The notes beneath the pieces are model-generated. The model ran no database searches, was not told the origin of the DNA, and worked only from the letters and a program-made list of their open reading frames with translations. Below, in pieces: positions 9,287-10,156 of a DNA stretch of 33,080 nt; the stretch's first letter is position 1; each line of letters opens with the position of its first letter. Origin of the DNA: a virus (lineage: Duplodnaviria > Heunggongvirae > Uroviricota > Caudoviricetes); the IMG/VR virus record IMGVR_UViG_2896601577_000002; one strand, written 5' to 3'. The position numbers were made by a program, and so were the translations under genes.

Positions 9287-9388
9287 GAGATGATACCTCA
9301 GTTACGAACTTTGTTTTATGGTAACTAAGGCGTCAAGGTGTGGCAAGTGATTTTGATACTTTGGTTTCTTTTTGTGTTTTGTGTCTGG
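9287..9388 (-). promoter_or_regulatory. putative leftward promoter/operator (OL/PL-like) region
   Basis: TTGATACTTTGG at 9353-9364 is identical to a motif in the cI-proximal operator region; candidate -35 TTGCCA / -10 TACCAT on the minus strand. Confidence 0.35.
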
Positions 9389-10045
9389 TCAGAAAATATC
9401 CCACCTGGCATCAACCACAACACCTACTATTTCGCAATCATTGTCCATTTCTATGATTGGATATTGTGGATTAAGGGGCTTTAGAAACGCCTTTCCCATG
9501 TCAGAAATATATTTTTTGAATGTTGCTTCATTGGTGGATTTTTTTCTGGCGATGACGTAACACCCTGAAAAAACTTCTTTATCTGGGTTGACAAGGATCG
9601 ACATTCCTTCAGGAAATGTTATTCCTACGGGCGAAGTCATTGAGTCTCCGTGCACTTCCAGCCAGAACCCCCTCTCACCAGCGTATTTTACAGAATGCCT
9701 CCAATTATCCTGATCATACATGTTGTAGTCATCACCAGAAGTTGCGAATAATCCTGCCTGAACCCAGTTAATTACAGGGTAAGAGTGTGCTGTGTCTCTC
9801 TGTGGGCAGCTCTTAACATTATTTTCCCAATGCTTATCTTTTTCATCTCCGTTCTGAAGCCACTGCGGTGAACACCGCAGTGCAGCTGCAACTTTAAAAA
9901 GGGTGTCACCGTTGAAACTTTTTGTAAGGCCTTGCTCGGCTTTACTGATTGCAACTCTGGTGATCCCAGCTTTTTTAGCCAACGCATCTTGTGTTAACCC
10001 AGCTTTTTGCCGTGCGTTGATGAGACGTTCACCTAAAGACTTCAT
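9389..10045 (-). CDS. cI: CI-like prophage repressor (N-terminal HTH plus C-terminal S24/LexA-type peptidase)
   Basis: HTH LTQDALAKKAGITRVAISKAEQG; peptidase motif GDSM; GAGGAG SD before the ATG at 10045. Confidence 0.85.
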   Translation of the reverse strand: MKSLGERLINARQKAGLTQDALAKKAGITRVAISKAEQGLTKSFNGDTLFKVAAALRCSPQWLQNGDEKDKHWENNVKSCPQRDTAHSYPVINWVQAGLFATSGDDYNMYDQDNWRHSVKYAGERGFWLEVHGDSMTSPVGITFPEGMSILVNPDKEVFSGCYVIARKKSTNEATFKKYISDMGKAFLKPLNPQYPIIEMDNDCEIVGVVVDARWDIF

Positions 10046-10156
10046 TTTTCTTCTCCTCTCATGGCTGTTGATACGAAAGTAACAGAATTTCTTGATACTT
10101 TGGAATCCCGCGGTTAACATCGTTGAATAACAAAGTATCTGGTGTGAGACTAAAGA
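10046..10156. promoter_or_regulatory. divergent promoter/operator region (OR-like; PR on plus, PRM on minus)
   Basis: PR candidate -35 TTGATA 10092-10097 and -10 TAACAT 10115-10120 (17-bp spacer); 9-bp inverted repeat GATACTTTG / CAAAGTATC flanks the -10; TTGATAC also at 10068. Confidence 0.5.

Follow-up and report, generated by a model that had tools for sequence, protein, structure and literature searches.

The palindromic sites on either side of the cI-type repressor gene in the window, by which we mean the whole 33,080-bp stretch of viral DNA analysed here, are very probably the operators of a CI/Cro immunity region of the phiP27 type. Six imperfect palindromes with the half-site GATAC were found, three per side of the repressor gene, and in related prophages the half-site changes together with the recognition helix of the CI repressor, which points to CI as the protein reading them. 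An initial annotation of the same DNA had described repeated motifs here as the OL/OR architecture of a lambdoid immunity region. The sequence comparisons below support that interpretation: the architecture was upheld on every computational test run, while the unit of repetition, the number of sites and their positions had been described incompletely. The coordinates of the sites, candidate promoters and genes are collected in Table 1.

Table 1. Operator sites, candidate promoters and genes of the immunity region. Ranks are those of the PWM scan; the 14-bp site is listed first and the 18-mer including the flanks in brackets.
Feature	Coordinates	Strand	Sequence or elements	PWM rank	Position and remarks
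OR3	10070-10083 (10068-10085)		GATACGAAAGTAAC	3	-57 to -44 of PR; overlaps the candidate PRM -10; nearest cI
OR2	10094-10107 (10092-10109)		GATACTTTGGAATC	2	-33 to -20 of PR, on the -35; contains one copy of the 12-mer TTGATACTTTGG
OR1	10126-10139 (10124-10141)		AATAACAAAGTATC	9	-1 to +13 of PR; contains the inverted 9-mer CAAAGTATC; nearest cro
OL3	9355-9368 (9353-9370)		GATACTTTGGTTTC	1	-57 to -44 of PL; contains the other copy of the 12-mer TTGATACTTTGG
OL2	9321-9334		GTAACTAAGGCGTC (- strand GACGCCTTAGTTAC)	4	-23 to -10 of PL, spanning spacer and -10
OL1	9292-9305		GATACCTCAGTTAC	5	+7 to +20 of PL; overlaps the ribosome-binding site of the 8783-9286 gene
PR (candidate)	-35 10092-10097; -10 10115-10120	+	TTGATA, 17-bp spacer, TAACAT		Promoter scan; predicted start ~10127
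PL (candidate)	-35 9346-9341; -10 9323-9318	-	TTGCCA, 17-bp spacer, TACCAT		Promoter scan; predicted start ~9311
PRM (tentative candidate)	10076-10084	-	Extended -10 TGTTACTTT		Embedded in OR3; tentative start ~10069
cI-type repressor gene	9389-10045	-			218 aa
cro-type gene	10157-10384	+			75 aa; divergent from cI
First gene of the leftward operon	8783-9286	-			167 aa; C-terminal HTH_3 (Pfam 3.8e-11)

Six palindromic sites flank the repressor gene

The initial annotation had been based on a 12-mer, TTGATACTTTGG, placed at 9353-9364 and 10092-10103, together with an inverted 9-mer (CAAAGTATC, 10131-10139) and an additional TTGATAC at 10068. A string search returned the 12-mer at both positions, the 9-mer at its coordinates and the TTGATAC at 10068-10074; the right-hand 12-mer does overlap the -35 hexamer of PR called by the promoter scan, and the left-hand one, which had been described as lying beside a leftward promoter, is 8 bp upstream of the scanned -35. 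The repeating unit is not a 12-mer direct repeat, however. Comparison with phiP27 and an Stx1a phage showed the 12-mer to consist of the left half and the spacer of an imperfect palindrome of 14-18 bp, which reads GATAC-N4-GTATC (14 bp) or, with its flanks, TTGATAC-N4-GTATCAA (18 bp). Of the six copies in the window, fragments of OR1, OR2, OR3 and OL3 had been picked up, but OL1, OL2 and every right half-site had been overlooked. The two identical 12-mers are real, yet they belong to OR2 and OL3, which occupy non-equivalent positions relative to their promoters (Table 1).

The exact 9-mer GATACTTTG was found three times on both strands of the window, against ~0.25 expected, and all three copies are confined to the two intergenic regions flanking cI. 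The palindrome GATACNNNNGTATC, allowing up to 2 mismatches, gave 16 matches in the window, five of which fall within 187 intergenic positions where 0.06 would be expected (Poisson 8e-9), and none of the 20,000 dinucleotide shuffles of both intergenic regions produced more than three. Looser motifs (the 12-mer with 2 mismatches, the 9-mer with 1 mismatch) were not enriched, their window-wide counts being close to the shuffled expectation. The signal is thus one of clustering and of the palindromic model rather than of loose counts over the whole window.

The OR sites of eight lineages other than that of the window served to train a PWM; neither the window sequence nor any OL site was in the training set. 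This matrix ranked the six window sites 1, 2, 3, 4, 5 and 9 among 33,063 positions, and the OL sites scored highly although they were outside its training set. OR1 is a weak member, with 2 mismatches and the lowest rank of the six. The best operator-like score beyond the immunity region (rank 6) belongs to TTGATACCAGATTATTAA at 20982-20999, which is probably a chance match because its left half alone fits.

Repressor, Cro and neighbouring genes

The product of the cI-type gene combines an HTH_3 domain (Pfam, 1.7e-14) with a Peptidase_S24 domain (3.2e-22), and its residues 12-215 could be aligned with the lambda repressor (3bdn, E 8.7e-34). The PDB matches of the N-terminal domain are 434 Cro, P22 C2 and the 434 repressor, and the recognition helix, ITRVAISKAEQG, corresponds to residues 28-39. 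An Ala-Gly cleavage motif (VQAGLF, from residue 95), the serine motif GDSM (from 133) and the lysine motif TFKKY (from 175) all fall within the alignment with the lambda repressor. The window accordingly has the features by which lambdoid immunity regions are recognised, namely a repressor with an N-terminal HTH and a C-terminal self-cleaving domain of the LexA/S24 type, a small Cro-type gene divergent from it, several imperfect palindromes between the two that overlap PR, and a second operator cluster (OL3, OL2, OL1) at the leftward promoter.

No Pfam or NCBIfam family was assigned to the cro-type product, and its PHROG (4749) is of unknown function. Its predicted fold, taken from an alignment-based model, is that of the all-alpha Cro proteins (N15, Xfaso1 and P22 Cro); a single-sequence AF2 model (pLDDT 57) was unusable. 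The stop codon of cro and the start of the gene that follows overlap (ATGA, 10381-10384); the latter gene encodes a Rha/Ant-like regulator (10381-11088). An extra reverse-strand coding sequence (L13) is present between these two genes in phiP27 (locus L001, 5062-5733), and the window is without it.

On the other side of cI, the first gene of the leftward operon belongs to PHROG 4739, with a weaker match to the 'CII-like regulator' PHROG 4836. The length of this protein varies among relatives; it is 138 aa in the phiP27 annotation and 216 aa in Stx1a phages. Approximately 1 kb further left of OL, in the leftward early region, an IS3-family element with HTH_Tnp_1 and rve domains was found at ~6892-8161, which we take to resemble IS2. 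Its first ORF is split over two frames (6892-7164 and 7113-7298), suggesting a frameshift or a sequencing error.

Conservation of the sites in relatives

Among named phages, those most closely related to the window are Stx phages: it is ~96% identical to the Stx2e phage phiP27 and ~86% identical to a set of Stx1a/Stx2a-converting phages. The immunity region was found in 204 of 5,426 complete E. coli genomes. All six sites are present in phiP27 and likewise in an Stx1a phage. Among ~67 IMG/VR relatives (CI 86-100% identical), OR sites are located at -94, -62 and -38 from the cI ATG, the last being OR3, which keeps its 38 bp in all close relatives, and three further sites follow the cI stop, in the diverged members as well. 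phiP27 and the Stx1a/Stx2a phages share both the upstream offsets and the sites past the stop codon, and lineage IMGVR-L068 carries the perfect palindrome GATACTTTAGTATC.

Loci in other genera were retrieved via Cro homologues, each divergent from an HTH_3+S24 repressor. The prophages of Salmonella, Klebsiella, Yersinia, Providencia and Photorhabdus encode CI proteins only 61-74% identical to that of the window, with a recognition helix, (V/I)(T/S)RVAISKAE(Q/L)G, that is the same or nearly the same. They contain three OR sites with start-to-start distances of exactly 24 and 32 bp amid diverged intergenic DNA, and at these loci a Cro homologue was always present alongside GATAC-type operators. 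Over nine lineages from six genera, TTGATACTTT(G/A)G at OR2, which corresponds to the 12-mer of the initial annotation, is kept in all nine, as is the OR2-OR1 distance of 32 bp; OL1 was found in six of the nine and is absent from the Klebsiella, Salmonella and Yersinia relatives. Half-site columns in these nine lineages hold 1.72 bits compared with 0.69 bits for the other intergenic columns (Mann-Whitney 7e-9), a conservation that is partly confounded with promoter and ribosome-binding signals where OR2 covers a -35, OL2 a -10, OL1 a ribosome-binding site and OR3 the candidate -10 of PRM.

The initial annotation had looked to an absence of the motif from homologous immunity regions as an observation that could overturn its reading; instead, the sites stand at conserved offsets in all relatives with the same or nearly the same helix. 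Five of these loci (L200, L202, L204, L206 and L208, the Klebsiella, Providencia, Photorhabdus, Salmonella and Yersinia relatives) also carry, past the cI stop and ahead of OL3, a G+C-rich hairpin followed by a T-run, resembling a terminator. Neither phiP27 nor the window has one at this place.

Co-variation with the CI recognition helix

Palindromes of the 5-N4-5 form were sought de novo in the DNA upstream of ~110 distinct CI homologues. Each class of recognition helix yielded its own palindrome, usually in three copies. The helix TRVAISKAE goes with the half-site GATAC, SRVTISKIE with (C)GAAAC-N4-GTTTC(G), placed at -94, -62 and -38 in locus L121, and SRMAISKIE, from Serratia, with TAAAC-N4-GTTTA at -96 and -40. 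Related palindromes thus replace the GATAC sites where the helix differs, and no GATAC-type sites adjoin cI in the more distant CI homologues. Two known systems served as positive controls. Loci resembling the 434 repressor (E 4e-24) returned ACAAG/CTTGT, the half-site of the 434 operator. P22-C2-like loci (N-terminal match E 1.4e-30) returned TTAAG/CTTAA, the same TTAAG half-site as in the published P22 operator consensus ATTTAAGATATCTTAAAT (PMC5175364). Co-variation of half-site and helix is the behaviour expected of repressor operators, and the candidate immunity specificity proposed in the initial annotation is borne out to the extent that operator sequence tracks the CI helix through the GATAC, GAAAC and TAAAC classes.

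A regulator other than CI might be the main binder of these sites, with CI acting elsewhere; the candidates are the HTH product of the 8783-9286 gene and Cro by itself. This proposal draws on the two further HTH-type proteins encoded beside the sites and on the constant company of Cro homologues and GATAC-type operators, but we consider it improbable, because the half-site shifts with the helix of CI while the putative helix of Cro hardly changes. In an alignment of the window protein with 38 homologues, the Cro-like family is 61-95% identical over at least eight genera, and its invariant motifs, VGKW, GVP and ILCH among them, persist even between phages with different CI half-sites. A putative Cro helix that is nearly invariant across half-site classes suggests that Cro may read the shared core only, or something else. 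Against the leftward HTH protein, Klebsiella, Salmonella, Yersinia and Photorhabdus loci keep OL and OR without an HTH gene left of cI. Moreover, Cro and CI share operators in the characterised lambdoid phages, so binding by Cro would supplement rather than replace binding by CI.

It is more improbable still that the conserved blocks are merely promoter, UP-element and ribosome-binding signals sharing the word TTGATAC, with no repressor reading the palindromes. Such signals do coincide with several sites: TTGATA is the -35 of PR, OL2 ends in the -10 of PL, OL1 overlaps a ribosome-binding site and OR3 holds a TGnTAnnnT element. They do not account for OL3 and OR3, which at -57 to -44 lie outside the core elements and are nevertheless conserved as half-sites 4 bp apart, nor for OR1 downstream of the -10, nor for the right half-sites, which are conserved without a promoter role. 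The half-sites of all sites also switch together upon a change of the CI helix, and the method that detected this recovers the true operators of P22 and 434. Finally, an AT-rich word might simply have recurred by chance in intergenic DNA that is itself AT-rich, a reading with which the loose window-wide counts would agree. It is refuted by the restriction of the exact 9-mer to these two regions, the excess of palindromes over expectation and shuffles, the PWM ranks and the conservation over six genera.

Promoters and proposed operation of the switch

The two candidate promoters called by the scan are conserved with the sites. A TAnnnT hexamer follows the TTGATA of PR after exactly 17 bp in eight of the nine lineages, the exception being IMGVR-L068, where the hexamer at this distance is GTACAT, or TACATT if the spacer is taken as 18 bp; around OL2, TTGnnn-17-TAnnnT is conserved in all nine. 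A rightward promoter starting from the TTGATA at 9353 was rejected for want of a -10 at a suitable distance.

Taking CI as the protein that binds the palindromes, we infer from the observed clustering, conservation, helix co-variation and protein folds the following scheme. A CI dimer would recognise GATAC-N4-GTATC, an imperfect palindrome of 14 bp, with one 5-bp half-site read by each HTH_3 recognition helix (T29-R30-V31-A32-I33-S34-K35), following the pattern of the 434 and P22 repressors. With OR2 on the -35 of PR and OR1 on its predicted start, bound CI would shut off cro and the rightward early genes, and OR3, lying over the likely cI promoter, would limit CI synthesis. On the left, CI at OL2 would fill the spacer and -10 of PL, with OL3 upstream of the -35; OL1 lies where transcription would have just begun and where the first leftward gene has its ribosome-binding site. 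During induction, RecA-stimulated self-cleavage at the Ala-Gly site would take CI off its operators, and the putative all-alpha Cro expressed from PR could then be expected on the same sites.

The promoter of cI itself is more tentative. The promoter scan called no promoter on the - strand of the OR region, and TGnTACTTT (10084-10076) is the sole conserved leftward -10 candidate there; a ribosome-binding site of cI, GGAG, is located at ~10053-10056. When the sequences were read by eye, TGnTAnnTT toward cI was kept in every class. The strongest support for the candidate, also by eye, comes from the GAAAC class, where this half-site of OR3 is GATAT, GCTAT or GATAG, preserving TGnTAnnTT. Between OR2 and OR1, TGTTAACCG and TATTCA were also considered as leftward -10 elements and rejected for lack of conservation in relatives. 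A lambda-like PRM, with OR2 centred at -42, was rejected as well, the required position having no -10-like hexamer by eye.

With the candidate PRM, OR3 would occupy -14 to -1 and OR2 -38 to -25, centred near -31. Lambda CI activates PRM from OR2 at about -42, and this difference in geometry suggests that the phiP27-type switch may lack positive autoregulation. Whether the switch is really wired differently from that of lambda, with CI purely self-repressing, we regard as doubtful. If so, PRM would be of the extended -10 type and lie within OR3, OR2 would lie over the -35 regions of both promoters (-33 to -20 of PR and -38 to -25 of PRM), and the lambda-like cooperative pair, 24 bp apart, would be OR3-OR2 rather than OR2-OR1, leaving OR1 32 bp off on the start of PR. 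Prophages from six or more enterobacterial genera share this layout.

OL2 variant in the window

OL2 differs in the window from its counterparts. Its promoter-distal half-site is GACGC (GCGTC on the + strand, with the change at 9331-9332), in contrast to the GATAC of the eight other lineages and of nearly all close relatives; the site carries 4 mismatches and yet ranks fourth in the PWM scan. Single-step variants are present elsewhere: E. coli AR_0372 has GATGC, and IMG/VR locus L038 has GACAC. The exact OL region of the window was found in none of the complete E. coli genomes, the best match being 98.5% identical. The double substitution from GATAC to GACGC is private to the window and should weaken OL2. 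It could represent an operator-down mutation, in which case the leftward HTH gene of this IS-carrying prophage would be partly derepressed.

Comparison with known immunity regions

Full-text literature searches, with a coverage that does not include the 2002 report of the phiP27 genome, returned no account of these operators: those for phiP27 operators or repressor led to reviews in which phiP27 operators are not described, and the text matches to the motif strings were only unrelated eukaryotic or primer sequences. The architecture is conventional and lambda-style, and the binding-site sequence was not found described in the literature searched. The present analysis assigns an operator sequence to phiP27-type immunity regions, together with the positions of six sites and of three candidate promoters, in a group that includes Stx2e-, Stx1a- and Stx2a-converting phages. 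Occupancy of operators by the repressor governs prophage induction, and hence toxin release, in Stx phages (PMC8065619), which makes the sites natural targets for footprinting, reporter and heteroimmunity work. The GATAC/GAAAC/TAAAC series with its accompanying helix changes could also be used for studying specificity shifts of HTH_3 repressors.

The window shares with lambda the divergent cI and cro genes with three palindromes between them, three more palindromes at the leftward promoter, a middle right-hand site overlapping the -35 of PR and a homologous C-terminal domain of CI. It differs from lambda in several respects. The sites are 14 bp long (5-N4-5) rather than 17 bp and unrelated in sequence, and the N-terminal domain of CI is of the HTH_3 type of 434 and P22. 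From start to start, the two OR sites nearest cI are 24 bp apart and the other pair 32 bp, whereas the lambda spacings are 24 and 23 bp, and OR1 lies on the predicted start of PR instead of the -10. OL follows cI directly, 715 bp from OR3, without rex genes between, and the first gene of the PL operon encodes an HTH_3 protein rather than N. phiP27 has been reported to lack N and cII (PMC3430580).

The 434 and P22 systems resemble the window in the HTH_3 fold of the N-terminal domain and in having 5-N4-5 sites in three copies upstream of cI. However, the half-site is GATAC in the window, as opposed to ACAAG in 434 and TTAAG in P22, the helix is TRVAISK rather than TQQSIEQ or SNVAISQ, and the OR2-OR1 distance of 32 bp compares with ~22-24 bp in 434-like and P22-like loci. 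Among Stx phages, the immunity regions of 933W and H-19B likewise have several CI operators at PR and PL, with three OR and two OL sites in 933W and four OR sites in H-19B (PMC8065619). The phiP27 type is distinguished from both by a different repressor and by its arrangement of three plus three sites, or three plus two in some genera.
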